64,000 bases of DNA from a virus (lineage: Duplodnaviria; Caudoviricetes): IMG/VR virus record IMGVR_UViG_2767802241_000002, positions 1-64,000 of that record. One strand, given 5' to 3'. Positions within the stretch are counted from its first letter, which is position 1. The number at the start of each line of letters is the position of its first letter. The notes under the pieces were generated by a model. It was not told the DNA's origin. It was given only the letters and a program-made list of their open reading frames with translations, and made no database searches. Positions 2,114 through 63,350 of the stretch are shown in pieces. A program made the translations under genes and the position numbers.

Positions 2114-3144
2114 CGAGTATTGATCATCGCCAGCTAATTATTTTATGGATTGGTGAAGCAGTAACAGCAGGTGCGCGCTTAAAAATAGCCCTTAAAGAGG
2201 TTAATTTAAGTTTACGGACTTGGCGTAGATGGCAGAAATCGAGTGAAGATCGTAGAACGACTGTTATCCGCCCAACACCAGTCAACCGATTGAGTATTGA
2301 AGAAGAACAACAGATATTAGAGATCTGTCATCAGCCTCGATATGCTGAGCTTCCACCTTCTCAAATTGTTCCAAGGCTTGCAGATCAAGGCATTTACATC
2401 GCCAGTGAGTCTACATTTTATAGAGTGCTTCGACGCCATGGGGAGATTCATCACCGAGGACGACAGCACAAACCAAGGAACATAAAACCACCGACAACTT
2501 TCAAAGCCCACACCTCATGTCAGGTGTGGAGTTGGGATATTACTTGGCTCCCCTCAAAGGTCCGTGGTCGTTGGTATTACTTGTATCTGATTGAAGATAT
2601 ATTTAGTCGCAAGATTACTGGAGCTGAAGTACATGAAGTTGAGAGTGGTGAGCTTGCGGCTGAACTCGTTCATCGTACGGTACTGCGTGAGCAATGCTAT
2701 CGCCAACCATTAATACTGCATGCAGATAATGGGGCTGCAATGAAATCTCAAACTTTACAGGTGAAGTTAACGGATTTAAATATCTCGCCTTCACACAGTA
2801 GACCGCGGGTGAGTAATGACAATGCCTATGTTGAGTCATTATTTAAGACCTTGAAATACGTACCTTATTGGCCATCGTCAGGCTTTGAAAGTTTAGATCA
2901 AGCCCGAGTTTGGGTTGACGGTTTTATTCACTGGTATAACGAAGAACATCGTCATAGTGGTATTAGTTATGTTACGCCATCACAACGGCATAAAGGTGAG
3001 GATATTGGGTTATTAGCGCAACGGTCTGAAGTATATCGTATAGCGCGAGAAGCAAAACCAGAACGCTGGTCAAAGCAGATTAGAAACTGGCACAGAAAAG
3101 ATGTTGTTATGCTTAATCCTGAGCGATTAAAAATAGCGGCTTAA
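2074..3144 (+). CDS. IS3 transposase OrfB (rve DDE), probably fused to OrfA by -1 frameshift
   Basis: WSWDITW, HADNG, DNAYVESLFKTLK motifs; the -1 frame is open from the slippery site. Confidence 0.88.
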   Translation, partial: AQRLLRGSRRGQLTSIDHRQLIILWIGEAVTAGARLKIALKEVNLSLRTWRRWQKSSEDRRTTVIRPTPVNRLSIEEEQQILEICHQPRYAELPPSQIVPRLADQGIYIASESTFYRVLRRHGEIHHRGRQHKPRNIKPPTTFKAHTSCQVWSWDITWLPSKVRGRWYYLYLIEDIFSRKITGAEVHEVESGELAAELVHRTVLREQCYRQPLILHADNGAAMKSQTLQVKLTDLNISPSHSRPRVSNDNAYVESLFKTLKYVPYWPSSGFESLDQARVWVDGFIHWYNEEHRHSGISYVTPSQRHKGEDIGLLAQRSEVYRIAREAKPERWSKQIRNWHRKDVVMLNPERLKIAA

Positions 3145-3652: not shown

Positions 3653-3736
3653 CATTTATTTGCAAGTAGACGCATAGTAGACCGCAGAAAATATTGTGCT
3701 ATATTGCGAGGTATTACGGAATCAGTGATTTTAGCC

Positions 3737-4984
3737 ATGTCAACTTCAAGAGTAAAGCTTACCAAGACATTTATTGACCAGTTAGAGATGACACCAGCTA
3801 TTTACCGTGATAGCGAACTAATAGGGTTTGCTCTTAGGGTGAACGCGACATGCAAGACCTATATTGTAGAAAAAAAGATTTTAGGTAAAGCAGTTCGGTC
3901 TACTATCGGTCTACATGGCAACTTAACACTGATTCAAGCTAGAGAGATCGCCCGCGATAAACTTTCACAGATGGCGCAAGGTATAAACCCAAACGATCAA
4001 AAAAGACAAGCCATTATTGATGAAAAAAACAAAGATAACCTTCAACAATCTAAACCTACACTTGCTGTGGCGTATCAAGCTTATTTAGAGTTTAAGGAAT
4101 TAAAACCGAGAACAGTTGAAGACTACAATAAGTCAGTAAATGTATACTTTTCAGATTGGGTGGATTTAAAAATTGATTCAATTACCAGGACAATGATTCA
4201 ATCCAAGCATGCTGAACTATCTAAAGCAAGCAAAGCTCAAGCAAATCTGGCAATGCGTGTGTTCAGGGCAATTTATAATTTTTCTGTCGAGCATTATCTT
4301 GGTGAAGATGACAAGCCAATTCTTGATGCACAGAATCCAACAAAAACACTTAGTGCAAAAAAAACTTGGAACAAGATTCGCCGTAGAAAAACATATATCA
4401 ACGAGGATCAATTGCCAGATTGGATTAAGGCTGTTTTAGAATATCAAGATAGAGGGCAGCAGCTTGAAACGAATAGGGATTTCCTTCTAACACTCATTCT
4501 AACTGGATTTCGACGCCAAGAGTGTGAGTCAATCGCATGGAGCGACGTAGATCTTAGGTACGGCCGCATCACATCAATCGACCCCAAGAATGGTGAGCCT
4601 CACACACTGCCAATGGGTGATTTTTTACTGGCAATGATGACAAAAAGGCGTAGACAAATTACTGGCGATTGGGTATTCCCCTCAGCTAAATCCGCATCCG
4701 GCCATATAGTCAATATATCTAAGGTACGTCAAAAAATTAACAATCAGTGCGGCGTTAAGTTTTCATTTCATGATCTTAGAAGGACTTTTGGATCAATAGC
4801 TGAGAATTTAGATTATGGCCGCTATACAATCAAAAAACTTCTCAACCACAAAGAGGATGGTGATAGGGATGTGACTTCTGGTTACATCCAGGTGAGTGAG
4901 CGGAAACTAAGAGAGGCTATGAATGAAATCGAAAAGACTGTATTGGGTGAATACAGGGATAAGCTGCTTGAAGAGTTGCGATAG
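3737..4984 (+). CDS. int: Tyrosine integrase with N-terminal arm-binding domain
   Basis: TGFRRQE, HDLRRTF, LLNH and TSGY catalytic residues; adjacent to tRNA; ATG 3737 preferred start. Confidence 0.95.
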   Translation: MSTSRVKLTKTFIDQLEMTPAIYRDSELIGFALRVNATCKTYIVEKKILGKAVRSTIGLHGNLTLIQAREIARDKLSQMAQGINPNDQKRQAIIDEKNKDNLQQSKPTLAVAYQAYLEFKELKPRTVEDYNKSVNVYFSDWVDLKIDSITRTMIQSKHAELSKASKAQANLAMRVFRAIYNFSVEHYLGEDDKPILDAQNPTKTLSAKKTWNKIRRRKTYINEDQLPDWIKAVLEYQDRGQQLETNRDFLLTLILTGFRRQECESIAWSDVDLRYGRITSIDPKNGEPHTLPMGDFLLAMMTKRRRQITGDWVFPSAKSASGHIVNISKVRQKINNQCGVKFSFHDLRRTFGSIAENLDYGRYTIKKLLNHKEDGDRDVTSGYIQVSERKLREAMNEIEKTVLGEYRDKLLEELR

Positions 4985-5023: not shown

Positions 5024-5287
5024 TCATCCGGTGTGTTTGAGTCGATTATCATCCATATATTGCAAAACATCTTGTTTTCTATACAAAACCGTTTTTGCTG
5101 AAGGCTTGGTGAATGGAATGCCGCCACCTTCACATCGCTTCTTTTGTAACCATGGCAGTGAAAGATGGTATACCAAAGAAATAACTTCAGGTGGAAACTC
5201 AGTATCAGGTGATGCATCACGGTAATCACTAATCAGCTCTTTTTTTTGAGCCTCTGTCATTTTATCTATCTTTGTCAATCTTGCCAT
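5024..5287 (-). CDS. Excisionase / HTH DNA-binding protein
   Basis: Small basic protein (WLQKKRCEGGGIPF...VLYRKQDV) convergent with int. Confidence 0.75.
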   Translation of the reverse strand: MARLTKIDKMTEAQKKELISDYRDASPDTEFPPEVISLVYHLSLPWLQKKRCEGGGIPFTKPSAKTVLYRKQDVLQYMDDNRLKHTG

Positions 5288-5985
5288 TACGCCGCAACCC
5301 CCTTAATCTTCTCAACCAACCCAGTAATACGCGTCAACCCGAACGCCGTGACACGCATATGCAAATGCACCTTTTCCTCACCGTATTTATTCACCACTAC
5401 AGGCGATGCTTTATTCACAAACACACCGCTTGCCACTTTGTCAGCATATGGCTGTAGTCGCCCATGTTCTTCTCGATAAATCCACTTTTTATCAATGAGC
5501 AGCTGGATTAATTTACGCTCACCTATTCCAATAGTTTTGGCACAATCACGAATTGTATAAATATTAGTTGTGTCTGCTATTACGTCGAGCGCTTTAGCCT
5601 TAGGTTCCAGCGTTGCAATCTGTGACTGTGCCAACTCAATTTGTTTGGCTTGATCTGCTGCAAGCTGTAATGCTTCCGCGAAAGACTGCGGCACCGCCAA
5701 GCTTTTGAGCTTAGCAAGTACATTTTTACGGACACCTTTAGATTCACGCATACCAATTAAGGTGCATTGATCAATTGTCAGGCTATAAGCAATCGATGTT
5801 GTATTGTTTAAATTTTGAACTACGAAACTTTCGTAGTGCTCACCCTCAAGCTCATCCGCAATGCGATTATTGAAATCATTTAGGCGAACAGGCTTTTCAT
5901 TAAACTCAGCACGAACAGCATTGATTATTTCCAATAAATCTTTGCTGCTCATGGTTTGAGAATTAAAATTAACAATAGCGTTCAT
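5287..5985 (-). CDS. Phage antirepressor, KilAC (ANT) C-terminal domain
   Basis: TMSS N-terminus, PQSFAEALQLAAD linker, C-terminal IRDCAKTIGIGERKL...RVTAFG. Confidence 0.85.
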   Translation of the reverse strand: MNAIVNFNSQTMSSKDLLEIINAVRAEFNEKPVRLNDFNNRIADELEGEHYESFVVQNLNNTTSIAYSLTIDQCTLIGMRESKGVRKNVLAKLKSLAVPQSFAEALQLAADQAKQIELAQSQIATLEPKAKALDVIADTTNIYTIRDCAKTIGIGERKLIQLLIDKKWIYREEHGRLQPYADKVASGVFVNKASPVVVNKYGEEKVHLHMRVTAFGLTRITGLVEKIKGVAA

Positions 5986-9549: not shown

Positions 9550-10011
9550 TTACGCTTCTACTAGACGGTTTTTCATCATGTAGCCAGCAATCAAAGCATT
9601 GATATTGCGATGATCATTAGAATCAGTGAAATCGCTGAATTCAGTACCATCGCGTGTGGTTACTGTATTCACACTAAGCTGGGTCACATCGATAGCAGTG
9701 AACTCAGAACCTGGTACGCCGTAACTGTCTGGAACTACTTCAAAGTCGAATGACACGTTCAAAACAAAGTCATCGAGCAGAATATTCGCCGTGCCAGAGT
9801 TGTCACCAGTTAAGATAAGGGACTGTAATTCGTAGGTAGAGGGGGCATTCGTTGGAATAGCGGCTGGTGCTTGCACAGCATTAGTATTGAAAGCTGTTAA
9901 GCCAACGAGGCTTAAAGAGCTGACAAGTAATAGAGTACTTAATGGTCGACGGCGTACAAGAGTTGTAACACCCGATAAACCGGGATTGAAAGAAATGGGT
10001 TTTGCGTTCAT
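9550..10011 (-). CDS. First gene of PL operon, membrane-anchored hypothetical protein
   Basis: AGGTGG RBS before ATG 10011; hydrophobic N-terminal segment; near-identical copy at 60658-61122. Confidence 0.75.
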   Translation of the reverse strand: MNAKPISFNPGLSGVTTLVRRRPLSTLLLVSSLSLVGLTAFNTNAVQAPAAIPTNAPSTYELQSLILTGDNSGTANILLDDFVLNVSFDFEVVPDSYGVPGSEFTAIDVTQLSVNTVTTRDGTEFSDFTDSNDHRNINALIAGYMMKNRLVEA

Positions 10012-10082
10012 AATCCACCTGTTGTTAGAAAAAGCCCCGCGTCCGTCCAAAGAGTGGGGCTTTTTGTTGTTTGATGGATATA

Positions 10083-10142
10083 AATATAAGAAATCTTAGT
10101 TTTATTGTCAATAAGAAATCTTATTTTATTTAAGTTAACTTA
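10083..10142 (-). promoter_or_regulatory. PL promoter and OL operators of prophage 1
   Basis: Three TAAG-N4-CTTA palindromes matching OR; minus strand TTGACA-N17-TATATT. Confidence 0.8.
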
Positions 10143-10264
10143 TTTTTTGTGTTTTAATAGACAAAAGAAAACCCGCACGGGGCGGGTAAACAAAAGCGAT
10201 TCCATCCTCAATGTTTTAAGAAAAACAAGGTATGATATGCTTAAGCAGAGGTGTATGTTGGATT

Positions 10265-11302
10265 ATGAAAATAGAAGCTGTTGATCTGTTCTGTGGGGTG
10301 GGTGGACTAACCGCAGGGTTACTAAAGTCTGGAATCCAAGTTAAAGCTGGTTATGATATTGAGCTAGCTTGTCGTCATGCTTACGAATTTAATAATAAGG
10401 CTAGGTTTATACATAAGGATGTAGCGGAAGTTACTGGTGATGAAATTAAGCAGTGGTATTCGACTGGTGCAATTCGCTTATTGGCTGGTTGTGCACCGTG
10501 CCAGCCTTTTTCTACATATAACAAAGGAAAAGACACTACAACTGATAAAAAATGGCCACTGCTATATCACTTCTCTCGTTTAATTAAAGAAGTTGAACCA
10601 GAATTAGTGACGATGGAAAATGTTCCAGATGTTACGAAGCATAAAGTTTATTGTGATTTTATTGATGAGTTAGAAAATCTAGGATATGTAATTACCGCCC
10701 AAGAGGTTGCTTGCGTTGATTATGGCGTACCACAAACACGGCGTAGACATGTAGTTTTAGCTTCGAAACTTAGTAAAATTGAACTGGTCAAACCTACTCA
10801 TAAACAACCAATTACAGTGAGAGAGACAATTTTTGATCTTGAAAATCTAGAAGCAGGCCAAAAATCCAAAAGCGATCCATTACATGTATCTTCTAGACTT
10901 AGTGAGATCAATTTAAAGCGTATTAGAGCATCAAAGCCCGGTGGGACTTGGAGGGATTGGCCAGAGGACTTACGCGCAGAATGTCATAAAAAAGTGTCTG
11001 GCAGGTTTTACTCTGCTGTGTATGGTCGTATGCATTGGGATCAACCCGCACCGACAATGACTACACTGTGCTATGGATTTGGAAATGGTCGATTTGGACA
11101 TCCAGAACAAGATCGCGCTATTAGCTTAAGAGAGGCTGCATTATTCCAAACATTTCCCTTAAACTATCAATTCACACCTATTGATAAATCTGTAGTTTTT
11201 CATACAATTGGTCGAATGATTGGTAATGCTGTTCCTGTGAGGTTAGGAGAGATAGTAGGATTAAGTATTATTAACTCCTTGCAGACGAATTATGTTGTCT
11301 GA
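10265..11302 (+). CDS. DNA (cytosine-5) methyltransferase
   Basis: Motifs DLFCGVGG, PCQPFS, ENV, QTRRR, REAALFQTFP, GNAVP. Confidence 0.96.
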   Translation: MKIEAVDLFCGVGGLTAGLLKSGIQVKAGYDIELACRHAYEFNNKARFIHKDVAEVTGDEIKQWYSTGAIRLLAGCAPCQPFSTYNKGKDTTTDKKWPLLYHFSRLIKEVEPELVTMENVPDVTKHKVYCDFIDELENLGYVITAQEVACVDYGVPQTRRRHVVLASKLSKIELVKPTHKQPITVRETIFDLENLEAGQKSKSDPLHVSSRLSEINLKRIRASKPGGTWRDWPEDLRAECHKKVSGRFYSAVYGRMHWDQPAPTMTTLCYGFGNGRFGHPEQDRAISLREAALFQTFPLNYQFTPIDKSVVFHTIGRMIGNAVPVRLGEIVGLSIINSLQTNYVV

Positions 11303-12024
11303 GTGGGGGATCTATACCCCTGATAATTGATGTAAGCATCATACTGATCAATGATATAACCTAAATAATCTTTAACTATATCAATTAGTCTTCTAAAATC
11401 ACTAGCGACATGATTATTCCCACATTCTGTAAATGAAATTGATCCATGGGCTAGTTTATTTCTTATTTCTTTAATCAATCTAATTGGAGCTTTATCATCT
11501 CTAAAAGGTTGCATTACTTTTTGTCTTAATGATCCAGATAGTCTAATTTCTACACCAATATTATTACTTAATTTTGATATCTCACTAACATCCCAATTCC
11601 CACCACCACCTAATGGAATCTTGATATCAAATGGTTTTAAATTAAGAACCTGCTCAAATAATAATATGGCTTTTTCAAGTCTCTTCTCATTATTTAGTAA
11701 TTCATACGGAGCAGTAACTGAAGTAACATACAATTTACGCATTTTTTCGGTTAATAAATTTAACTGACCATCAATACCCAAGGTTGCATGCCTCTCAATT
11801 GCTTTAATTAGAGAAGAAATAGTAGACTCAATTAAATTATATAGATGAAGGTAGATACTAGAATACAAAATTTTCTGTTGTTCTGGTTGTATCATATAGT
11901 TATTATCATTAAAACGTAAGACAGCATTACCAGTACTAATCGCTAGTTCAATGTTATGAACTAACTCAAAATAGCTCTCAATGTCACTAACTCTATCATT
12001 AAAAATTGATCGCACCAACTCCAT
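11290..12024 (-). CDS. HEPN-domain protein (MAE_28990/MAE_18760-like)
   Basis: LYNLIES helix, GGNWD, RNKLAHG (RxxxxH) then SFTECG. Confidence 0.85.
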   Translation of the reverse strand: MELVRSIFNDRVSDIESYFELVHNIELAISTGNAVLRFNDNNYMIQPEQQKILYSSIYLHLYNLIESTISSLIKAIERHATLGIDGQLNLLTEKMRKLYVTSVTAPYELLNNEKRLEKAILLFEQVLNLKPFDIKIPLGGGGNWDVSEISKLSNNIGVEIRLSGSLRQKVMQPFRDDKAPIRLIKEIRNKLAHGSISFTECGNNHVASDFRRLIDIVKDYLGYIIDQYDAYINYQGYRSPTQTT

Positions 12025-12026
12025 AA

Positions 12027-13079
12027 TTAATCCTCTTCAAGCAATGCATTGCGCATGTAATCAATTCTTCCAGTTAATTTACGTCTTGCATTGGCACCAT
12101 CTGAGCTAACTTCTTTCTTAAAGTCATTATGATCCAGAATTGAGTTCGTTTTTTGAATATCCACACTTAGATCTGGCTTTTCTTCTAATGCGAAGTGAGA
12201 GCCTAATGCTATAGATTCATACCTTGCCCTTGGTGTTGTTTTAGCTCCCGGTGTTTTTCTAAATCCAAGTTCAAAAGACTTATCTACAAATTCAACCATT
12301 CTTTGGAAGCGCTGCTCATATTTGATTTCTAAATTAGGATCTCTATCAAATGCATCATTCATTTTCTTTATATACCTGAATATAAAAGCTGAAACATCAT
12401 CTTTATACCCATCTAAGCCATCAGAATATGCAAAAAATCTTGTAACTAACTCCTCTGCCTCTCGTTCTTTTTTCTGTTTAGTTGTAATAGGGGCTATTTT
12501 TAAAAACAACTCATGTGATGCTAAACGATTAACAAAATTCATAAAATTACCACGGAGAGCACCGCGTCTAATCTCAGCAGGATTAGCAACCTTAGGACCA
12601 GTATTAATTCTTTCAAATAGATCTACTCTAGCCTCCATATCGGTTTTCTCTGAAAGAATAATTCCTCTGATAGAGATATTTAATATTTTCCTACGTCGAG
12701 ATAAAGGGAGATCAAAAAAGGAGGTGCCATTTAGTAAATCTAAACGCTCTAAATCCTCTAGAATTAAGCGCCCTCCTAAATATTCCTCAATAGTTCTCAG
12801 TCGTTGTGAACCATCAACGATTTCAAGCTTACCTGTCTTATCATTCATCCAAAAGAACACAAAAGGAATTGGTAGTCCAATTAGAATAGATTCAATAAAT
12901 TTACTTTTCCTTGGTCCCTCCCATGTAAATTCACGTTGATAATCTGGAACTGTATATTCTTTTTCAGCAACTTTTTGAGCTAAAATTTCAATTGTGTATT
13001 CAGACGTATAAAAATCTATTTTTTTTGAATAATTTTGGAGTTGTAGCTCCGCTGCTTTAAGTGTTTCTTCGTCAATCAT
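12027..13079 (-). CDS. DUF262 (ParB-like / GmrS-like) protein
   Basis: PDYQREFTW, FIESIL.GLPIP, VDGSQRL, FERIN. Confidence 0.92.
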   Translation of the reverse strand: MIDEETLKAAELQLQNYSKKIDFYTSEYTIEILAQKVAEKEYTVPDYQREFTWEGPRKSKFIESILIGLPIPFVFFWMNDKTGKLEIVDGSQRLRTIEEYLGGRLILEDLERLDLLNGTSFFDLPLSRRRKILNISIRGIILSEKTDMEARVDLFERINTGPKVANPAEIRRGALRGNFMNFVNRLASHELFLKIAPITTKQKKEREAEELVTRFFAYSDGLDGYKDDVSAFIFRYIKKMNDAFDRDPNLEIKYEQRFQRMVEFVDKSFELGFRKTPGAKTTPRARYESIALGSHFALEEKPDLSVDIQKTNSILDHNDFKKEVSSDGANARRKLTGRIDYMRNALLEED

Positions 13080-13226
13080 AATTTCTCCAATAACTTTAAT
13101 TACTACATATGGTTAATAAACTTATAGGTTACCAAATATATAGTTAAAAATTAATCACACACCCGAACTTTCAAAAGTCCTGCGTCGGGTCGCAGTTAAA
13201 CGGCCAATAGGTTGGGCTTTTATGAT

Positions 13227-13529
13227 TTATCTCTCAGCATACTTTTCCAAAAACTCATCAATCCAGCCTTGCACCGCCTCACGATTTGTTATGTCAGCCA
13301 GCTTCAGGCTAGTGCCTTCTGCTTCGTTAAAACCCTCAATAATGGCTTCAAAGATATTAGCCTCAGCAATGACCTCATTTGCCATTTCTGCAGCGTCATA
13401 GCTCTGTTTGGCTCTTTTAAGTGCTGCAATTTGCTTATCAATTCCATCGCCCATTTTAGCCAATGCCATTTTAAATTCTTGACGATTAATCGTTAGCGCG
13501 GTTTTGGATTTATTAAGTGTCGCGATCAT
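13227..13529 (-). CDS. Conserved hypothetical protein downstream of cI
   Basis: AAGGA RBS before MIATLNK; near-identical copy at 62270-62569. Confidence 0.8.
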   Translation of the reverse strand: MIATLNKSKTALTINRQEFKMALAKMGDGIDKQIAALKRAKQSYDAAEMANEVIAEANIFEAIIEGFNEAEGTSLKLADITNREAVQGWIDEFLEKYAER

Positions 13530-13540
13530 TGTGATTTCCT

Positions 13541-14209
13541 TTAGATTTTTCGATATAAACCAACAACCTTGCCGACAAGTCGACAATCATCGGTCAGTTT
13601 AATTATTTGATCAGGCCAATCTGGATTAAGAGGCTGCAAATATTTATTACTACCTTCAATAATTAATTTTTTAAATGTCGCTTCTGTATCACCAGCACAT
13701 GAAACAATAACAAGATCTCCGCTATGAAGGTCAAAGGTTTGAACATCTGGGTTCACGTAAATTCGATCATCGATTTCAAATTTTGGTGACATTGAGATAC
13801 CTGTAACAATTAAGCCATATCCATTCTTCCCGCAATCCTTATTAGGTGGCAACCACTCGCAAACCTCAGCATCACTAATGATCGTCTCGGTTGGTGAAAA
13901 CGACCCTGCGGCAACCCATGAAATAACAGGTATAGGGCGACCTTCAAGTCCGATCTTCTGACTTAGGTTGACGTTATTATCAAAGGCTGGCTTATTGGGT
14001 GGTTCTTTACCAGTTAATATGTATTCTGCTGTAACCCCAAAAAGGTTAGCCATTGCTTCCAGAGAGGCGGCTTTAGGTTGGTATCCGTCTTTCTCCCACT
14101 CAGTAACTGCGGGCGAACTAACCCCCGCAACCTTCGCTAATTGAGCTTGCGTTAATTTTTTCGATCTTCGAAGGGCCCGAATGCGCTGCCCGATTGTATT
14201 AGTGTTCAT
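13541..14209 (-). CDS. cI: CI-like repressor (HTH + S24 autopeptidase)
   Basis: HTH TQAQLAKVAGVS..AVTEWE; AG cleavage site (WVAAG); GISM and TFKKL; appears leaderless. Confidence 0.95.
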   Translation of the reverse strand: MNTNTIGQRIRALRRSKKLTQAQLAKVAGVSSPAVTEWEKDGYQPKAASLEAMANLFGVTAEYILTGKEPPNKPAFDNNVNLSQKIGLEGRPIPVISWVAAGSFSPTETIISDAEVCEWLPPNKDCGKNGYGLIVTGISMSPKFEIDDRIYVNPDVQTFDLHSGDLVIVSCAGDTEATFKKLIIEGSNKYLQPLNPDWPDQIIKLTDDCRLVGKVVGLYRKI

Positions 14210-14271
14210 ATAAGTTATCTTACATCTTGTAAAAATAAGATTTCTTTGATTTAATAATAAGAAATCTTATT
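14210..14271. promoter_or_regulatory. OR operators (three) of prophage 1
   Basis: ATAAGTTATCTTAC, ATAAGATTTCTTT, AATAAGAAATCTTATT between cI and cro. Confidence 0.8.
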
Positions 14272-21971: not shown

Positions 21972-22055
21972 TGTGTCATTACCTTAAGTTGAATAATGAC
22001 ATGAATAAGTGATTAACAAAAACCATCTTAGGGTGGTTTTTTTATGGGTAGAGCA

Positions 22056-22697
22056 ATGGACCAAATCAGACCATTCCCACCAACTGACTTCATTGATCAG
22101 GCTGAGGAAGAAGAAGCTATACGCTTGGTACCCGCCGTCGATCTAAAACAGTGGGTAGTAGATAACTTTTTAACGCTTGGCGGTGCTTTACATAATCCTG
22201 ACCATGACCACGTTGCTGAGTTATTACATGATGACGAAACCTTTTTAGCCTTTGCATGGGCATCATCTGCCGCCGTGGCTAAAAAGCGCATGGTGTTAGG
22301 CCAATGTGAAAAGGTGATGTTTAATCAGGGCGGATGGAAGAAAGCACGACAGGAACAACAGATGCGCGACTGGTTCGGCGCCGTACCGGTTTATTTAATT
22401 ACCATTGATGCTTCATTCTGTGAGCAAACCTCAGACCGTGATTTCTGTGCTTTGATCGATCATGAGCTTTATCATATTGGTGTTGAACGTGACGAAGACG
22501 GCGAAATTATTTACAGCGATCATACTGGCTTACCTAAACATTACTTAGCTGGTCATGATGTCGAAGAATTTATCGGTGTGGTCAAACGATGGGGAGCAAG
22601 CGAAAGCGTTAAACGATTAGTCGAGGTCGCACAGAATCCGCCGTTTGTACCAGATTTAGACATAGCAAAATGCTGCGGAAACTGCGTAATCAATTGA
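22056..22697 (+). CDS. Putative phage metallopeptidase
   Basis: HELYH and HDVEEF motifs, upstream of terminase. Confidence 0.85.
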   Translation: MDQIRPFPPTDFIDQAEEEEAIRLVPAVDLKQWVVDNFLTLGGALHNPDHDHVAELLHDDETFLAFAWASSAAVAKKRMVLGQCEKVMFNQGGWKKARQEQQMRDWFGAVPVYLITIDASFCEQTSDRDFCALIDHELYHIGVERDEDGEIIYSDHTGLPKHYLAGHDVEEFIGVVKRWGASESVKRLVEVAQNPPFVPDLDIAKCCGNCVIN

Positions 22698-32186: not shown

Positions 32187-32362
32187 TTACCCAACAAATC
32201 CGATCTACTTCTAACCAAACCTGTCCATAGCGACAGGTTTTTTTATGCCTGAATTTTCTGTTTACCACTGGCTAGGGTAGCTCCTGAACTGAAGATGGTC
32301 GTTTCGGCACTCATTGCATCTTCTTGCCAATGTTCTTTTTCTATGAGTGTCTGGAGCATATC

Positions 32363-32906
32363 AATGAATGCAATCGTAAAAATTGAAGGTCAAACCCCTT
32401 TTATTGAGGTTGAATTAAATGGGAAGGTGCAGTTTGGTGTTAATGCTCGCGACCTACACCGCTGGCTTGAGAGTAAGCAGGATTTTTCAACATGGATAAA
32501 AAGACGAATTGCTAAGTACAAATTTCAAGAAAACATGGACTACCTGATCCATCAAGTGGTGGAGCAGGGTGTTAGTGGGGCAAAGCATAAAACAGAATAC
32601 TTACTTACTGTAGATATGGCTAAAGAGTTGTCCATGGTTGAGTGTACGGATCGTGGGCGTGAAGTACGTCTTTACTATATTGAGCAGGAGGAATTGGCTC
32701 GTCAGCTTAAAGACGGAATGCAGGTGCGAATTGGTAAGCTTTCAGCGCAAGTTGATCTGATGACACAGTGTTTGTCTGAAGCAGGGCGTTTCCTTTCAGT
32801 TAATGGTAAGCAAACTAAGCCAGCCATGCTTAAAGAATTGGATGAGCTGATTAAAAAAGCCCAGCCACAGTTAGACTTCAAAGAGAATGATGAAGATGAA
32901 TCTTAA
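32363..32906 (+). CDS. AntA/AntB-family antirepressor
   Basis: VNARDLH.WL...QDFSTWIK.RI, YLLT.DMAKELSM; GGAG RBS before ATG 32363. Confidence 0.88.
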
Positions 32907-37091: not shown

Positions 37092-37343
37092 TTACTTTTC
37101 TTGGTTTTTTAAAAGATCTGTGATCATTTGAAAGTATTTACGATTACTCTCCATGCTTTGATTTAGCATTTTTCTAAGATCATCAACTTCCCATGAGTTT
37201 GAATCTGTATTTTTAAAGCTTTCTTCTAATCGATAAACAGCTTCCGCCGTTATGGTTCTACCATTCTCCAGCGCAGCTTTTTCAATTTTTTCCTTAAGTT
37301 CCATTGGAACGCGAAGGTTCATTTGCGGATCGTTGCGAGCCAT
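37092..37343 (-). CDS. Arc/Mnt-family ribbon-helix-helix repressor (Mnt-like, module A)
   Basis: MARNDPQMNLRVPMELKEKI...GRTITAE...RL. Confidence 0.9.
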   Translation of the reverse strand: MARNDPQMNLRVPMELKEKIEKAALENGRTITAEAVYRLEESFKNTDSNSWEVDDLRKMLNQSMESNRKYFQMITDLLKNQEK

Positions 37344-37381
37344 GGTGAATCCAAAATCTAACACTCGTTAGATATTATTGC

Positions 37382-37449: not shown

Positions 37450-37602
37450 ATGGCAAGAACTGATACTCAGGTTGCGATACGTGTGCCACCTGAACTTCAT
37501 AAACAACTTAAAGAGAAATCTTTAAAAGAAGAGCGTTCAATGAATTACTTGATTAATAAGGCAATTGAACTTTTATTGAAACCAGAGAGTGCGAAAGCAT
37601 GA
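37450..37602 (+). CDS. Arc-like RHH repressor, 50 aa (not in ORF track)
   Basis: GAGG RBS; MARTDTQVAIRVPPELHKQLKEKSLKEERSMNYLINKAIELLLKPESAKA. Confidence 0.85.
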   Translation: MARTDTQVAIRVPPELHKQLKEKSLKEERSMNYLINKAIELLLKPESAKA

Positions 37603-37676
37603 AACCAGCAGACAACAAAAAAGCCCATGATCTTGGCGGACAGGGCTTAATTGATGTCAACATAAAGGAAAATATT

Positions 37677-38567
37677 ATGACAACTATGAGTCTACAACAA
37701 ATCACAGTGCCTTTCCATAATGCTGAACTATATTTGGTTGAACATGATGGGCAACCTTATGTCCCCATGCGCTCAATTGTGCAGGGCATTGGGTTGGATT
37801 GGAAAAGTCAGTTTGTTAAGCTAAAACAGCGATTTTCGACCTGCGTGGTGGAAATCACCATGCAGATATTAGGAGACGATCAGGCACGTTCTCACACTTG
37901 CTTACTTCTGCGAAAACTACCAGCGTGGCTTTATTCAATTCACGCAAACAAAGTAAAACCAGAACTTCGAGATACTGTAATTAAGTACCAAGAGGAATGC
38001 GACGATGTGCTCTGGGATTATTGGACAAAGGGGCAAGCGATCAACAAGCGCCAGTCAATCACCCCTGAACAACAGGCGTCACTACAGGCAATTGTAGCGC
38101 GCCGTTCAGGTGGAGAGCGCAAAGCAATGGCTGAAATGTGGGCTCGGCATAATCAGCATTTCAAGATTGCAAAGTACAGTCAGCTTCTATCAATCCATTT
38201 TCCCGAAGCTATCAGTTATCTTGAAACAATGGAGATCAAAGCAAAACCTGAGCAGCAATTAAGCATGGTAGTATTTGAAGACAAAGCAACTTATGAGCTT
38301 GTGCGAAAATTGACTGAAGCAGTTATTCTTGAAAATGATGAAATCGTGCCTTTGTTATCTGCTATAAAGATTATAGATGAGAGGAAGTATGCATTTTATG
38401 CGCATCGAGTAGTGTGTGCGAATGAAGCAGCAAGAAAAGTGAGTAGAGCGCTTGATTTTAGAAATGGCTTGGGCGAGCCTTTGATTGACCAATCTTGCAG
38501 AGTAATTGCTCTTTCAACAGGTCAGCGGTTCGTGGCTCGACCGAACTGGTTTAACTGCGAAGCTTAA
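37677..38567 (+). CDS. ant: P22 Ant-type antirepressor (P22_AR_N domain)
   Basis: VPFH...PYVPM..IV.GIGLDWKSQ, KVKPELRD.VI.YQEECD.VL.DYW; AAGGA RBS before ATG 37677. Confidence 0.9.
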   Translation: MTTMSLQQITVPFHNAELYLVEHDGQPYVPMRSIVQGIGLDWKSQFVKLKQRFSTCVVEITMQILGDDQARSHTCLLLRKLPAWLYSIHANKVKPELRDTVIKYQEECDDVLWDYWTKGQAINKRQSITPEQQASLQAIVARRSGGERKAMAEMWARHNQHFKIAKYSQLLSIHFPEAISYLETMEIKAKPEQQLSMVVFEDKATYELVRKLTEAVILENDEIVPLLSAIKIIDERKYAFYAHRVVCANEAARKVSRALDFRNGLGEPLIDQSCRVIALSTGQRFVARPNWFNCEA

Positions 38568-38627: not shown

Positions 38628-40017
38628 TAATGCCAGTCAGTTAAGGCTTGACTGGCATTTTTTTCGGATATTTTTTAGGTTTGCCTTTCACTACCCTTGG
38701 GCAACTTCTCTGCCTTCTTTCAGGGATAATGAACATGGCTGACTGATCCAATAAACGAGCTAAATGCTTTGGAAGGTTCCCTGCTGATTCTAAGGGTGTA
38801 TGTCTTAATATATTGATAATGGCTATTGAGGCAATATGAAAGCTAATTCTTAATGGGCTTATATTTTGCGTTTGAGCCATAACCTTTATTTGTCTTCTCA
38901 ACACATTGTAAGCAATCAATACCCCCCATAATTCTTGATAAACCAATTCAGGTTGCTTGCTTCTTAAATTCAGTCCGTCCTGTAAATCGCTCTTTATCTC
39001 TCGATAACACATCTCTATTTCCCAACGCTGAATGTATAGATCAGCTAAATCTTTCATTGGGTAAAGCTTTGAATCTAATAGTGATGTTATGTAACGTCGA
39101 GTTCGACCTTGGTGCTGAACTTCAATCAGACGTGCTTCCCAGAACTGACCTAATTCAGGATTTAACTTTTGCGCTCTTGGTGAAATTGGCATACGAACCA
39201 AGAAATCTTGCTTTGAGTTTTTCGAAATAAGTTCATAACGTAAGTTATCTTTGGCGCGCATTAACCAATGGCTATTTACACCTGTAGATTGCCAATGAAT
39301 CAGAAAATCTGCAGAGAAATACGCTCGATCAAACAAAGTAATGCTTTGATCAGGAACGAGTAACTCTTTTGCTAATGTGAGTTCACCTTTGCCCATATCC
39401 CCAATTTGAGCATCGATAATTTCATGTGTATTGGTATTGATGAGGCAAGTCGCCCGCACTTGGGGCCAAGGGGCTACTTCTGTTTTACCTTTAGATGAAC
39501 CAAAGTGAGCAAAGTTTTCAGGGGTATGTGGCATTAACCAAACCACGCCATCAACTGCACAGACATTTAACTCATGGAAAGTTGCGTATTGAGAGAATGA
39601 TTCTTTAGACCATGATTGACTCAATTGATTAAAGAGCACTTTTAATGGCTCTAAACCTAGGCGCTGTCTAGCTTGAACAGATGCACTTGGGGCACACGGA
39701 GGTTGAGATCCAAAGACTAATTGTAATTGCTCGACAACAAACCAAATGGGCTGATTTCGAAATAAAGCAAGTCCTATCACAAGCCAGACGACATGTTCGG
39801 CAGGCAACTTTCTTTTTCGGATTGAAGCTTTTCCTGTTTCGGATAAGCTTTTTTCAATCCAGTCATGATCAATAAGTTCACTAAACTTATCTAGGCTAGG
39901 TATTGATTGTTGCAAGACTGAATCTATATTTTGAGCAAAAGACATAAAAAATGAGCGTAATTTGATACGCTCATTTTTACTATATTTTAGACTTTTTGTC
40001 TTAACTGATCAGCATTA
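38628..40017 (-). mobile_element. IS4-family element with 10-bp target duplication
   Basis: IRs TAATGCCAGTCAGTTAAG / CTTAACTGATCAGCATTA; direct repeats GCCTTATAGC at 38618-38627 and 40018-40027. Confidence 0.95.
38641..39945 (-). CDS. IS4-family transposase
   Basis: AVDG, FDRAY, Y..RWEIE..YREIK signature. Confidence 0.95.
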   Translation of the reverse strand: MSFAQNIDSVLQQSIPSLDKFSELIDHDWIEKSLSETGKASIRKRKLPAEHVVWLVIGLALFRNQPIWFVVEQLQLVFGSQPPCAPSASVQARQRLGLEPLKVLFNQLSQSWSKESFSQYATFHELNVCAVDGVVWLMPHTPENFAHFGSSKGKTEVAPWPQVRATCLINTNTHEIIDAQIGDMGKGELTLAKELLVPDQSITLFDRAYFSADFLIHWQSTGVNSHWLMRAKDNLRYELISKNSKQDFLVRMPISPRAQKLNPELGQFWEARLIEVQHQGRTRRYITSLLDSKLYPMKDLADLYIQRWEIEMCYREIKSDLQDGLNLRSKQPELVYQELWGVLIAYNVLRRQIKVMAQTQNISPLRISFHIASIAIINILRHTPLESAGNLPKHLARLLDQSAMFIIPERRQRSCPRVVKGKPKKYPKKMPVKP

Positions 40018-41260: not shown

Positions 41261-42052
41261 TTACGCTAGTTCCTCAAAACCATCATACATATTCGTACCT
41301 GCTGGGTTTCGCTGAAGTAAGGACATACATCCCTCATTGAAGACTAAAGGCAACTTGGATTGTAAATACTGATCTGCCTCAAATGCTGACTTTTTCATAT
41401 CGTCAAGCCACTTGCTGAGTGTGCCCTCCGAATCGCCGCGATTTAAAAGCAGTCTTTTAATAAGTTTTGTTTCACATTCACGGCGAACTTCAATATAAGG
41501 CTCAATGATGTTTAAAATGCGTTGAAACTCTTGCGCCATCGCTGGTAAGTGTTCGACTTCAAACTTGGCAGGGCTAGGTACGCCAGTGACATGGCGTAGC
41601 GAGTGATAGACAGCATTTGTAAATGATCTCTTATGATCCAAATATCCAGCACAGCACCAAATAAGACGCTTTAAATTCAGCATATCGTTGTTGTTGATAT
41701 AGTTGCGCTTTTCAATAGGTTTAGGGGCTTCATATTTGCCAGTTTTACGGATAGCTGGTAAAACTTCAGAGGTTACCCATTTTTTGAATCTTTTTGCTTC
41801 AGGTTTTCGACTTTTTAAAATCGCTGAATAGAGACCAGATTCGTTGATGATAGATAAATCTTGGCTTCCAGAGGGGGTACGCAGATTGTGCGTACCCTTT
41901 TCATCATCATCTAAGAAACGAGTCATGTCGCTTGCCATACGATAATCTAAAGCATTTGCAACATCTGTAGCAACAAACCAAAGCTCGCCGTTTATATCAA
42001 TGATACGGATGTCGTGTTGATCATGAAAAGTGAATTGTGTTAGATTAGCCAT
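41261..42052 (-). CDS. BRO-N domain antirepressor-like protein
   Basis: WFVATDVA..L, INESGLYS.ILKSRKPEAK.FKKWVTSEVLPAIRKTG.Y. Confidence 0.92.
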   Translation of the reverse strand: MANLTQFTFHDQHDIRIIDINGELWFVATDVANALDYRMASDMTRFLDDDEKGTHNLRTPSGSQDLSIINESGLYSAILKSRKPEAKRFKKWVTSEVLPAIRKTGKYEAPKPIEKRNYINNNDMLNLKRLIWCCAGYLDHKRSFTNAVYHSLRHVTGVPSPAKFEVEHLPAMAQEFQRILNIIEPYIEVRRECETKLIKRLLLNRGDSEGTLSKWLDDMKKSAFEADQYLQSKLPLVFNEGCMSLLQRNPAGTNMYDGFEELA

Positions 42053-42136
42053 GTTGACTTTCCTTTAAGTTGTTGACATCAATTAAGCCCTCGCCGTGCA
42101 AAGTCTGGGCTTTTTTGTTGTCTGAGATATTCATAA

Positions 42137-42934
42137 TTATGCTCGAAAGATACTATTTAATTTGATGCCATAAACTGCTTGCCACGCATCTTTAGGGTAA
42201 GTTTTTACTGATCCGTAATTAGCATCATAAATATCTTTGATTTTCTTGCCGTTATCCTGGCACCATTTTTTTAGAGTGCGCCAGTTGAACTTTTCACCAG
42301 TTACAGTCTCAACAGCTTTAATTGAAGCGTAGTTTTTGGATTCGCCCAGTTGCTCTTTTAGTTTTTCAGCTTCACGACTTTTTGCTGATGCAGTTGCCAT
42401 TGCGGTAGCTTCACGGCGTTTACCGATTTCAGCTTTAGTTGCTACAGCATGGTCACGTTCCTGTTGTGCAATTTGCTTTGCTTTGTATTCAGCAGCCCAA
42501 GCAATAGCAGCCTCGGCAGGATCAGCGAAGTTTGGCAGGGTTAAGTCATTCTGCTGTGATTGCTTTTTAAAATTAAAGTAGCAGTCTTCAAGTTGTTCAA
42601 ATACATTCCAAGACTGATCAGTGTCTAAAATCTTGGCATGTCGTGCTGCACCTTTTTCAGTCCAGAGCATTAGTCGTGCTGTATGTTTTGGAACATGGTG
42701 AATACCAGTTACCATGTTCTTAAAAGCTTTGAGTTCAGCGCCTTCAACTTTAAAATAGTGCTTACCTTCAATAAATCGACTGGTGTTATTTGAGAAGTTC
42801 TTTTTTACATTATCGGTCTCAGTGCCATAAAAATCTGCCAACTGCTCAGTAGTCATAACAGGTACAGATTGATACTCAATAATTGATGTTTGCTTGTCGG
42901 CGATACAGACAGGGGTGTTAATTAATGCATTCAT
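42137..42934 (-). CDS. ORF6N-domain antirepressor-like protein
   Basis: VMTTEQLADFYGT, RFIEGKHYF, LWTEKGAARHAK. Confidence 0.88.
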   Translation of the reverse strand: MNALINTPVCIADKQTSIIEYQSVPVMTTEQLADFYGTETDNVKKNFSNNTSRFIEGKHYFKVEGAELKAFKNMVTGIHHVPKHTARLMLWTEKGAARHAKILDTDQSWNVFEQLEDCYFNFKKQSQQNDLTLPNFADPAEAAIAWAAEYKAKQIAQQERDHAVATKAEIGKRREATAMATASAKSREAEKLKEQLGESKNYASIKAVETVTGEKFNWRTLKKWCQDNGKKIKDIYDANYGSVKTYPKDAWQAVYGIKLNSIFRA

Positions 42935-43095
42935 ACTGCTGCTCCTTGAATTTGTTTATAAAGTTTAATCGCCTGATTAACTATAAAGTTAATCGAGCGA
43001 TCGTGTTTATTTGCGTGTTGTTTAAGCCATTCATGATCATTGGGATCAATGACTCTAATCTTCATTTGTGGGTGAGCAATTGTTTCGGTAGACAT
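42931..43095 (-). CDS. Arc-like RHH repressor (module B)
   Basis: PQMKIR...WLKQ.A...DRSINFIV; GGAG RBS. Confidence 0.8.
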   Translation of the reverse strand: MSTETIAHPQMKIRVIDPNDHEWLKQHANKHDRSINFIVNQAIKLYKQIQGAAV

Positions 43096-43106
43096 GTTTA
43101 ATCTCC

Positions 43107-43179
43107 AATGAACCACAGTGGTTCATTTGAATTAAAACTGAACCACGGTGGTTCTATTGTCAATACCCCACGGTGGTAT
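43107..43179. promoter_or_regulatory. Three operator palindromes, module B
   Basis: AATGAACCACAGTGGTTCATT, GAACCACGGTGGTTC, ATACCCCACGGTGGTAT. Confidence 0.85.
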
Positions 43180-43218
43180 AAAATGAATATTATTTTGTGG
43201 TATATGGTTGTAATTTAT

Positions 43219-43743
43219 ATGAGCAGAGTAGATCCCCAGTTAAAGCTTAGATTGCCGCTGGAATTGAAAGATAAAATTACTGAATCAGCAGCAAGTCTTG
43301 GTCGATCTATAAATGCTGATGTTGTGGCAAGACTGGAACAAAGTTTTGATCAAGCTGGTGTTGAGTTGCGTCAAAATGAAATGATAATTGATAAGGATCT
43401 ATATAAAGAGCTTATAGGGATGCGTAAGGATTTATTAAAAATGTCAAAACTTATATATGACGGATTTGCTCCAAAATTTGAAGAGATAAAAATATTGCCC
43501 TATTCAAAACCCACCAACAAGGCTATCGCAGTTGGTGACACAATTAAGTTAAATTTCACATTCGGGGAATCAAATAATAGTAGATTTGGCAATTTTAGTG
43601 TTCTTGAATATGATGGCGAGATAGGCATTGCCGAACTGATTGGGGTTACATTGGATATAAACTATTTTGAAGATTATGAGGATAGAATTGGTTCAAAATA
43701 TAAATTCAAAAAAAATGATGTAGTTGATGTTAAAAAGAAGTAA
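43219..43743 (+). CDS. Arc/Mnt-family repressor with extra C-terminal domain (Mnt-like, module B)
   Basis: MSRVDPQLKLRLPLELK..I...GRSINA....RL. Confidence 0.85.
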   Translation: MSRVDPQLKLRLPLELKDKITESAASLGRSINADVVARLEQSFDQAGVELRQNEMIIDKDLYKELIGMRKDLLKMSKLIYDGFAPKFEEIKILPYSKPTNKAIAVGDTIKLNFTFGESNNSRFGNFSVLEYDGEIGIAELIGVTLDINYFEDYEDRIGSKYKFKKNDVVDVKKK

Positions 43744-57729: not shown

Positions 57730-57860
57730 GGTAATGTATATCTATATAAATCAATAGCTTAAGTTTATTTGGGGCAATATTGGGACAATTGCAAAGTTAT
57801 CCACAATAAATTGATGATTTTAATGACTATTATACATGTCTTATAAAAGAAGAAAGAGGG

Positions 57861-58146
57861 TTAATTAACCCTCTTTCTACCTGTCTTTTGTTTACCTAAA
57901 CTTAGGATACGTTCTGCTTCTTCTGGATTGTATAAATGCTTATTTGGTGTTCCTTTATTTATTGGTAATAAGCGGCTCCTGATGGTCTTAACATCTAGAT
58001 TGTATTGTTTCGATAAATAAGCTGCTGATACCAATTGAGGGCTAATATCTTTAATTGATATGACTTTAGCACCACCAATTTCTGCACCTACATGTAAGGC
58101 TGGTGCCTCACCTTGCACCGTAATAGCGTAAATACCTACTCCCATC
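57861..58146 (-). CDS. Excisionase-like DNA-binding protein
   Basis: Next to att; VSA..LSKQYNL..KTIR..L...LYNPEEA, basic tail. Confidence 0.6.
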
Positions 58147-58277
58147 ACTCTCTCCACATCGCTTCTTTAAATTTCGATTCAGTTATTAATTCTTCAATTT
58201 CATATAAATAAACATTATGAAATATATGGGTCATTTTGTTGCCGAACACAGTAAGTGTCTGGCTGATCGATGAATAG

Positions 58278-61122: not shown

Positions 61123-61196
61123 AATCCACCTGTTGTTAGAAAAAGCACATTTGATTTGACGGTCGGTGTGCTTTTTTGTTGTCTTGATGAATAGTA

Positions 61197-61270
61197 TGTT
61201 CAACTAATTGAACTAAAGTGTCAAGACTTTGTTCGAAATATTGTATATCTATTTATTCAGTATATTGAAC
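61197..61270 (-). promoter_or_regulatory. PL/OL of prophage 2
   Basis: GTTCA-N6-TGAAC palindromes matching OR2; TTGACA on minus strand. Confidence 0.75.
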
Positions 61271-61692: not shown

Positions 61693-61784
61693 AATATCTC
61701 CAGCTAATCTTTTTCCGAAAGGACTCGCTATATTCACAGTAAAGGTGTTTCATGAATAAAAACGAATCTTTAATTGTTAAGCGT

Positions 61785-63335: not shown

Positions 63336-63350
63336 TTAATAATCTCCTAT

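Follow-up and report, generated by a model that had tools for sequence, protein, structure and literature searches.

According to Li et al. (2025, NAR), proteins with a DUF262 domain stand at the centre of the systems GmrSD, PD-T4-2, Dazbog, Ssp and Menshen. PD-T4-2 consists of two genes, which encode a DUF262 protein and a HEPN protein of the RiboL-PSP type (PF18735) (Mariano and Blower 2023, PMC10952713), and it has been shown to protect against T4 natively in ECOR65 as well as in K-12 (Vassallo et al. 2022, PMC9519451). An association of MAE_28990-type HEPN, ParB and DNA-methylase genes is listed in Table 1 of Anantharaman, Makarova, Burroughs, Koonin and Aravind (2013, Biol Direct 8:15), where 'RiboL-PSP-HEPN: operon with ParB' forms a separate entry. 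For HEPN proteins linked to restriction-modification (R-M) systems, that article proposes an RNase held in check by the R-M subunits. The association is treated there in one table row and in the general idea of a 'multi-pronged R-M + HEPN' response, passages that give no experiment, counts or phage context. Here, a cassette of this type is described from a stretch of viral DNA of 64,000 nucleotides (nt) (Caudoviricetes; positions 1 to 64,000 of IMG/VR record IMGVR_UViG_2767802241_000002), hereafter called the window. It encodes a C5 cytosine DNA methylase, a HEPN protein of the MAE_28990 family and a ParB-like DUF262 protein; all three families of the 2013 entry are therefore present and adjacent. 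The trio is an example of the operon type listed in 2013, and it is related to PD-T4-2 as a cousin that carries a methylase. The cassette was confirmed, its limits are well defined, and it very probably constitutes a defence system. Beyond the 2013 entry, the present analysis shows that the linkage is obligate but one-sided, and it describes the orders of the genes, two subtypes of the DUF262/HEPN pair, the slots in prophages and the further partners of the methylase. A first-pass annotation of this DNA had stated that no experimental characterisation was known. This stands for the trio itself, for which only the 2013 computational listing was found, but the two-gene relative PD-T4-2 has been validated against T4. 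No experimental study of the trio was found in the full-text literature, a body of text largely without subscription journals and supplements (e.g. the Rousset 2022 catalogue).

The window contains one complete lambdoid prophage (prophage 1), which carries the cassette, followed by the start of a second, related prophage (prophage 2). The cassette and its genes are as follows.

10188..13226, no strand assigned: whole cargo cassette, three genes with their control regions, delimited by blastn breakpoints between prophage 1 and prophage 2.
10232..11302, plus strand, probable start at 10265: C5 cytosine DNA methyltransferase; open reading frame (ORF) of 356 amino acids (aa), Pfam PF00145 at 5.9e-52.
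11290..12024, minus strand: HEPN protein of the MAE_28990 family, predicted RNase effector with RNKLAH at residues 188-193; 244 aa, Pfam PF18737 at 2e-13.
12027..13079, minus strand: ParB-like DUF262 NTPase with a C-terminal helical domain of the ParBDB type, predicted DNA sensor; 350 aa, Pfam GmrSD_N.

The methylase and HEPN genes converge and overlap by 13 nt at their 3' ends (11290-11302), while 2 nt separate the DUF262 and HEPN genes (12025-12026). This arrangement had been read off by the first-pass annotation and is borne out by the ORF list. Its gene identities also held in a Pfam profile search, which matched DNA_methylase, HEPN_MAE_28990 and GmrSD_N/DUF262, and the motifs it had picked out in the DUF262 protein (DG.QR, F.RIN) and the HEPN protein (RNKLAH) are present and invariant among relatives. 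A regulatory role of the convergent overlap was considered but discarded, as the corresponding gap spans -56 to +39 nt in eight convergent relatives.

The methylase matches DNA_methylase over positions 3-323 of the 324 in the profile, and further matches were obtained to the PADLOC models MTase_II (7.3e-88) and DrmMII (PDLC02651, 7e-87) and to NCBIfam TIGR00675 (3.4e-33). The motifs FCGVGG (FxGxG), APCQPFS with the catalytic cysteine, and ENV are intact. Because all profile matches begin at M12 (10265), translation is more likely to start there than at 10232. An alignment across 77 trio loci shows that the PCQ, ENV and QxRxR motifs are kept together with the target-recognition region, and the conservation of this region suggests that the whole family may recognise a single site. 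The methylase relatives in PDB (3g7u, M.HaeIII, M.HhaI and DNMT1) match the catalytic core only and give no assignment of the target site.

The HEPN protein scores 51.5 bits against HEPN_MAE_28990, for which the cut-off is 26.8, and belongs to a phage family that it matches over its full length (phrog_3846, 8.6e-35). Residues R188, N189, L191 and H193 are invariant among 23 aligned sequences. The AlphaFold 2 (AF2) model has a predicted local distance difference test (pLDDT) value of 85.9, and HEPN-domain proteins head its VIA-align list with Z of 8.0-8.8, which is weak for a helical protein, the top rows agreeing with one another. When the HEPN profile was compared with PDB sequences, only rows at chance level were returned. 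Among the PADLOC models, searched at E up to 10, CARF_HEPN at 0.032 was the sole match and PD-T4-2_B was not matched; the HEPN proteins of two related loci, L001 and Moraxella phage Mcat25 (L002), likewise lack a PADLOC match to PD-T4-2_B. Since PADLOC-DB v2 has no model for the window's HEPN, PADLOC would not call the system.

In the DUF262 protein, GmrSD_N/DUF262 (PF03235) is matched at residues 39-174 (3.7e-22), and the full-length phage family phrog_2598 at 2.9e-100. The PADLOC model NsnA gives 1.9e-56 (190 bits) over profile positions 39-378 of 385 and thereby scores higher than PD-T4-2_A (3.2e-31, 106.7 bits, positions 55-357 of 363). The motifs QRxxxW (Q48, R49, W53), DGSQR (89-93) and FERIN (155-159) are invariant in the alignments. 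The AF2 model (pLDDT 83.8) is led in Foldseek by BrxU (prob 0.98), ParB, Noc and SspE, and BrxU is also the best match among PDB sequences (3.4e-07). At E <= 0.001, neither the HEPN nor the DUF262 model had a Foldseek match in PDB, so that both folds were assigned from weaker, mutually consistent rows and, for HEPN, also from VIA-align. A DUF1524 or HNH domain was not detected in the DUF262 protein: no Pfam match lies beyond residues 39-174, and the C-terminal half of the model is all-helical.

The first-pass annotation had noted that a classical restriction endonuclease is missing. This was upheld, as the ORF list and Pfam give only the DUF262 and HEPN proteins besides the methylase and no other nuclease-family ORF inside the cassette. 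Compared with a classical Type II R-M system, the cassette thus has the cognate methyltransferase but no endonuclease of a known DNase fold in its cargo. A PADLOC match to 'REase_II', confined to the N-terminus of the DUF262 protein (6.3e-9), could nevertheless be taken to mean that this protein itself cuts unmethylated DNA, as in a true Type II-like R-M system, with the HEPN protein as a second-line suicidal RNase that is set free only if restriction fails, in line with what has been proposed for PrrC-type pairs. This would agree with the 2013 table and text, which name the partner 'ParB nuclease' and present HEPN as a second line checked by the R-M subunits. However, known DUF262 domains are NTPases or sensors and leave cleavage to a fused DUF1524 His-Me domain (according to the relevant sections of PMC10952713, PMC12137116 and bioRxiv 2024.01.29.577857). 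Such a domain is absent here, and the conserved DUF262 motifs are the nucleotide-binding ones. DNA cleavage by the DUF262 protein is decidedly unlikely.

PD-T4-2 resembles the cassette in being a small DUF262+HEPN operon on accessory DNA of E. coli, and the window's DUF262 protein matches PD-T4-2_A over nearly its full length, although its higher score on NsnA marks it as a relative and not as a clear member. The two differ in the effector, which is of the RiboL-PSP type in PD-T4-2 but of the MAE_28990 family, with no match to PD-T4-2_B, in the window. They also differ in gene content: PD-T4-2 has two genes without a methylase, whereas the window's cargo and 79 of 80 related loci include one. 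A true PD-T4-2_A gene was sought in 301 Enterobacteriaceae genomes, in which only distant DUF262 relatives were found (best 174 bits), most of them without a HEPN or methylase neighbour according to local profiles. Menshen (NsnABC; Millman et al. 2022; Li et al. 2025) provides the profile closest to the window's DUF262 protein: NsnA, described by Li et al. as ParB-DUF262 plus ParBDB, shares the two-domain build and the QRxxxW, DGxQR and FxxxN motifs. The cassette lacks the ABC ATPase NsnB (ORFs and Pfam, 10188-13226) and the inPIN effector NsnC (no PADLOC match and no third gene in the same direction), and a HEPN protein stands in the place of the effector. Li et al. report that some Menshen loci contain solitary methylases, and raise the question of whether non-modified DNA may be the target of ParB-DUF262. 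GmrSD, BrxU and SspE share the N-terminal DUF262 NTPase fold, BrxU being the top fold match, but the window's protein lacks their DUF1524 His-Me nuclease and has 350 aa as compared with 580-770 aa for BrxU and SspE. Each of them is a single protein that works on modified DNA or is activated by it, and none has a cognate C5-methylase; SspE requires the phosphorothioate mark of its host. As possible matches, WonAB/GrwAB of V. cholerae (PMC12137116) and likewise the HEC systems (bioRxiv 2024.01.29.577857) were compared and were rejected, as the architectures described there differ.

To determine how firmly the three genes are linked, related loci (designated by L numbers) were collected with an alignment of 23 diverse HEPN homologues as query and one genome per species, and the best 80 of 165 relatives were examined. 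Profiles built from the three proteins of the window served to identify neighbours, with ORFs of 70 aa or more taken into account. In all 80 loci, the gene immediately upstream of HEPN encodes a DUF262 protein. The same methylase family is adjacent in 79, the exception (L066) being a 2,008-nt contig that ends at HEPN. In 67 of these 79 the methylase follows downstream in the same direction, in eight it is convergent as in the window, and in four it lies upstream; a 4-nt stop/start overlap joins HEPN and methylase in 41 of the 67 co-directional loci. The loci come from Pseudomonadota, Cyanobacteriota, Actinomycetota, Planctomycetota, Chloroflexota, Bacteroidota and other phyla. In IMG/VR viral contigs, DUF262 accompanies HEPN in ten of ten cases and the methylase in nine, the tenth contig being cut at HEPN. 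The first-pass annotation had offered co-occurrence in other genomes as a check on its proposal, and the complete trio was present in 79 of the 80 HEPN-anchored loci and 9 of the 10 viral contigs. Deposited phages with a HEPN relative comprise nine Moraxella phages and one P2-like coliphage (two accessions); of these, Mcat25, with the order cI, DUF262, HEPN and convergent methylase, and the P2-like coliphage were inspected. In many phyla the three genes are inherited together, in most cases as an operon with translational coupling. It had been proposed in the first pass as a single piece of prophage cargo in a rexAB-like slot, which the co-occurrence, the shared slot and the P2 hotspot described below strongly support. 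It is highly likely that the three genes form one functional unit of the defence type.

The reverse scan was anchored on the methylase and covered the best 80 of at least 590 relatives, all 54-77% identical to that of the window, with neighbours recorded within about 4 kb. DUF262+HEPN was found in 28 loci (26 of them convergent), a HEPN remnant in one and a weak DUF262 match in another, while 50 had neither. Recurrent neighbours in these 50 are a protein of about 1,040 aa (30 loci), one of about 146 aa (28 loci) and one of about 625 aa (10 loci). Pfam analysis of representatives identified the first as an SNF2-type helicase (3/3), the second as Vsr (4/4) and the third as a GHKL ATPase (3/3 full-length representatives). 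In one locus (L119) the methylase orthologue stands beside MZB and PLD proteins in a DISARM-like arrangement. As a side observation, the methylase-anchored loci (L108-L187) include pairings of Vsr with an SNF2-type helicase or of Vsr with a GHKL ATPase of about 670 aa, for example in L187, L128 and L122. Thus there is a likeness to systems of the DISARM and paraMORC types, in that the window's methylase scores as DrmMII and its orthologues (54-66% identical) occur beside SNF2, MZB (DUF1998) plus PLD, and GHKL plus Vsr. DISARM itself differs, as drmA (helicase), drmB (DUF1998/MZB) and drmC (PLD) are absent from the window's cargo and flanks. In a FastTree phylogeny of 156 methylases, which left out the split-gene loci L001, L025, L032, L043 and L054 as well as L066 and the duplicate L162, the partner label changes 20 times and the trio label at least six times on well-supported branches. 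The dependence is one-sided: the HEPN family always brings the methylase family, and the methylase family serves several alternative modules. The pattern seen is that of a shared modification module that serves alternative restriction-type modules.

The 50 methylase loci without the pair could be cited in favour of two independent passengers, namely an orphan methylase with an anti-restriction or epigenetic role and a self-contained DUF262+HEPN system of the PD-T4-2 type that senses modification in a Type IV-like manner. PD-T4-2 works without a methylase, a related pair without one exists on a plasmid-like contig (L098, see below), and the window's genes are convergent with separate promoters. 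Against this, 79 of 80 genomic and 9 of 10 viral loci of this HEPN family have an adjacent methylase, in many phyla and three gene orders, and most often with translational coupling. Chance adjacency cannot yield such linkage, and this disfavours independence. Moreover, a sensor of methylated cytosine encoded next to a cytosine methylase would target self. Separate passengers are therefore highly improbable.

The pair and the methylase have diverged differently. In L103, from the same genus as the window, the methylase, DUF262 and HEPN proteins are 83, 87 and 78% identical to those of the window, and in L003 (Yersinia) 58, 73 and 67%. The corresponding values are 77, 34 and 25% in L108, an Acinetobacter prophage locus beside cI and cro, 74, 34 and 27% in L109, and 68, 37 and 29% in Mcat25. 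Over 77 related loci the pairwise identities of DUF262 and HEPN correlate with r = 0.88, a value that is descriptive only, as the rows share kinship. Judged from these comparisons, there are two DUF262/HEPN subtypes, and the pair appears to change jointly while the methylase is exchanged independently. Because the pair co-diverges and the methylase does not, DUF262 and HEPN probably act together physically.

The most economical reading would be a methylation-gated anti-phage module with R-M-like logic, in which the methylase marks self; we give this version about an even chance. The C5-methylase would mark a fixed short site, probably identical everywhere, on the resident DNA, i.e. the host chromosome and the prophage. 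The DUF262 protein, with its ParB/sulfiredoxin-like NTPase and helical DNA-binding domain, would load on or scan DNA and read the methylation of this site. Unmarked incoming DNA would switch its NTPase cycle, which would release or activate the HEPN protein, a predicted Rx4H RNase. Cleavage of phage transcripts or host RNA would then block the infection, probably with growth arrest of the abortive type. In a lysogen, transcription of DUF262 and HEPN would accompany that of cI or follow immediately downstream of it, and the methylase would use a promoter of its own. The pattern of decay offers weak support for self-marking: among the HEPN-anchored loci, 7 of 80 have a split or shortened DUF262 gene and 1 of 79 such a methylase gene, which resembles a restriction arm that decays first. 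In addition, a Commensalibacter locus (L110, 2609-3865) has an intact methylase, 74% identical to that of the window, next to an 86-aa C-terminal HEPN remnant and no DUF262, and resembles a cassette that has decayed except for its methylase.

Several observations weigh against self-marking. The characterised DUF262 domains of GmrSD, BrxU, SspE and GrwAB are described in PMC10952713, PMC12137116 and PMC12065111 as sensing modified, not unmodified, DNA, and the listing for PD-T4-2 comprises two genes and no methylase. The decay count of seven versus one is small, and many of these loci are metagenome bins. The neighbour calls depend on profiles seeded from the window's proteins, with Pfam confirmation for the window, L001, L002 and selected neighbours. 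On L098, a 5.6-kb mobilisable plasmid-like contig from Enterobacteriaceae that also carries MobC/NikA, relaxase and replicase genes, a DUF262+HEPN pair occurs without a methylase. The RiboL-PSP and MAE_28990 models give its HEPN equal scores, so the sensor-effector pair can stand alone in a neighbouring subfamily. A viral contig (L195) has a split methylase beside an intact pair. Finally, three E. coli copies of the P2 type, 99.9-100% identical otherwise and all with intact DUF262 and HEPN, differ in a poly-G tract at the KPGGTW codons of the methylase (L001 2361-2372, L198, L199): G8 in phage P2_4B2 (frameshifted), G6 in strain 2015C-4136CT1 (PGAP 'frameshifted') and G7 in strain 181.1 (in frame). 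The differences in length represent either phase variation or homopolymer read errors. If real, the frameshifted and split copies show that the pair is tolerated without the methylase, contrary to what strict self-marking predicts.

The same copies could instead be explained if the methylase licenses the pair. In this Type III-like or Ssp-like alternative, the methylase or its 5-methylcytosine mark would be needed for DUF262-HEPN activity, either because the methylase recognises the site as one subunit of a complex of all three proteins or because DUF262 docks on methylated self sites, in the way SspE does on phosphorothioate. Loss of the methylase would switch the defence off and the cell would survive, which agrees with a tract that is in frame only at G7 while the pair stays intact throughout, and with the split gene in L195. 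In 41 of 67 operonic loci, HEPN and methylase are translationally coupled, which fits a stoichiometric complex, and the methylase family also partners the NTPase modules SNF2 and GHKL, possibly used alike. It has further been reported that characterised DUF262 domains read modified DNA, the SspE NTPase being triggered by the host's own modification (relevant sections of PMC10952713 and PMC12065111). However, the tract differences concern three copies only and may be sequencing errors, and the tract of the window's methylase is interrupted (CCCGGTGGGAC). The methylase is transcribed separately in the convergent layout, and the more frequent decay of DUF262 is a better fit to a dispensable or toxic arm. 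Licensing is a tentative possibility, and the evidence that separates it from self-marking is thin and points both ways. Equally speculative is a broader proposal: the trio would be an R-M system with an RNase as its restriction arm, in which a ParB-like NTPase clamp would gate the HEPN RNase according to the 5-methylcytosine state of a fixed site on DNA and the methylase would be a required licensing or recognition subunit as well as an antidote, poly-G slippage would toggle immunity without killing the lysogen, and the methylase family would be a common 'self-mark' plug for at least three modules (DUF262-HEPN, SNF2/DISARM-like and GHKL/paraMORC).

Prophage 1 contains, in order, the integrase gene (3704-4984), recombination genes, cI/cro/O, head and tail genes and the lysis genes (about 57.4 kb). 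It is an Acinetobacter-type lambdoid prophage that carries the trio as cargo ('moron') from the cI side to OL/PL. The surrounding features are listed below.

10083..10142, minus strand: OL/PL, with two operator words TAAGAAATCTTA that recur at OR and a leftward promoter; context, not cargo.
10171..10187, minus strand: hairpin resembling an intrinsic terminator for leftward transcripts, at the left cargo edge; from the terminator scan, part of the shared phage backbone.
13080..13226, minus strand: spacer of 147 nt upstream of DUF262, within the non-homologous cargo; GGAG about 7 nt before the ATG.
13227..13586, minus strand: small backbone gene, phrog_15679 (PHROGs, 6.2e-55), between cI and the cargo; context.
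13541..14209, minus strand: cI-type repressor with HTH_3 and Peptidase_S24 (Pfam; phrog_4, 5.4e-52); context.

Homology between the two prophages (blastn) sets the boundaries. Positions 9563-10187 correspond to 60674-61313 at 80% identity and the match stops at 10187; it restarts at 13227, where 13227-13541 corresponds to 62267-62581 at 94% identity. Between the breakpoints prophage 1 has the trio on 3,039 nt, whereas the 953 nt of prophage 2 contain two small ORFs that are unrelated to it. The first-pass span of 10232..13079 was therefore right for the genes, but the cargo really extends over 10188-13226. Its description as an AT-rich block was confirmed, with a GC content of 0.351 (HEPN 0.306, DUF262 0.345, methylase 0.392) versus 0.41 in the flanking rest of the prophage. 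The OL that it had placed at 10083-10142 was substantiated as well: the palindromic operator word TAAGAAATCTTA occurs in two copies at 10087-10125 and in two more between cI and cro (14236-14271), and the promoter scan found a leftward match of 11/12 at 10111..10083 (TTGACA-17-TATATT). The hairpin at 10171..10187 lies inside a block common to prophage 2 and Acinetobacter phages. The spacer at 13080..13226 may hold a promoter of the cassette's own, although the promoter scan scored no match there.

In lambda, rexAB is a superinfection-exclusion cargo that lies between cI and OL/PL and is transcribed from the cI side in the lysogen. The cassette shares this place, and its DUF262 and HEPN genes run in this direction, but its proteins are unrelated to RexA and RexB in sequence and family, and an additional backbone gene lies beside cI. 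The placement between OL and cI proposed in the first pass was correct as to the slot, with the qualification that the cassette does not adjoin cI directly: the phrog_15679 gene (13227-13586) intervenes. Homologues of this gene occupy the equivalent place in prophage 2 (62270-62569), L109 and L189. Functionally the designation as a rexAB slot holds, as this is a cI-proximal, OL-bounded swap site with one backbone gene intervening. The same cI-adjacent slot holds the trio in Acinetobacter and Moraxella prophages (Mcat25, L103, L108 and L109). In Acinetobacter phage phi5013-M2 (L101, 5149-7416), the cI-to-OL slot is occupied by a single 755-aa fusion of N6_Mtase and HSDR_N; the protein is annotated as hypothetical and resembles a fused restriction-modification enzyme. 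When the region was compared with phage records by megablast, only about 120 nt of the OL/terminator block were matched, in 10 Acinetobacter phages, and thus no deposited phage has exactly this cassette.

The second defence-associated position was found in E. coli, where P2-like prophages carry the trio between the portal gene and the replication endonuclease gene. Rousset et al. (PMC9122126) describe the P2 gpA-gpQ locus as a defence hotspot. The slots in which the trio lies are thereby either known or demonstrable as defence and cargo positions in temperate phages. A P2-type copy or a relative of 74-76% identity is present in 7 of 5,426 complete E. coli genomes. In the window's genus, a HEPN match at E up to 1e-10 was obtained in 6 of 201 genomes including its own, with one other being close. 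Among 1.84 billion representatives, clustering at 50% identity gives 1,465 clusters of the HEPN family at E up to 1e-3, 924 at 1e-10 and 156 at 1e-30. The best 150 matches listed are stand-alone proteins, mostly of 230-260 aa, with some shorter fragments.

Type II R-M systems can behave as addiction modules. The RM-like architecture and the constant location on mobile DNA (prophages and the P2 hotspot, and a plasmid for the relative) would also suit a module whose main role is to maintain the prophage or mobile element through post-segregational killing, the methylase being a short-lived antidote and defence a by-product at most. However, the positions are classical superinfection-exclusion slots, adjacent to cI or, in P2, at old/tin (as presented in PMC9122126). 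Furthermore, the validated relative PD-T4-2 is reported to act against phage (PMC9519451), and copies with a frameshifted methylase persist. Addiction is very unlikely to be the primary role, and this reading is not exclusive of methylation-gated defence with self-marking, with which it is compatible.

Further observations concern the two prophages as such. The part of prophage 2 in the window (57800-64000) has the same early-left layout as prophage 1, with a phrog_1984 gene (60658-61203), the phrog_15679 gene (62270-62569) and cI (62610-63335). Its slot (cargo 61314-62266) contains convergent small ORFs at 61317-61694 on the plus strand and 61785-62165 on the minus strand, both without a Pfam family, which may be a toxin-antitoxin or exclusion pair. 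Three transposase genes lie in or beside prophage 1 (2290-3144, phrog_157; 22044-22697, phrog_513; and 38641-39945, an IS4-family DDE transposase within the tail region), and given these genes, prophage 1 may be non-inducible at present. Genes for Ant-like anti-repressors are unusually numerous (32295-32906, 37599-38567, 41261-42934 and 5287-5985), most of them among the tail genes, and are accompanied by Arc-like repressors (37092-37364, 42931-43116 and 43108-43743).

Discrimination of self from non-self by DUF262 is known only for readers of modified DNA. A strictly co-inherited methylase provides a genetic handle on whether a methyl mark on DNA gates an RNase. Natural contrasts are available in the two DUF262/HEPN subtypes on one methylase family, the methylase-less plasmid pairs and the copies with a frameshifted methylase. 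The cI-proximal slot in lambdoid prophages of Acinetobacter and Moraxella is a swap site for defence cargo, like gpA-gpQ in P2, and knowledge of this slot aids the interpretation of prophage-mediated phage resistance in Acinetobacter and Moraxella hosts.

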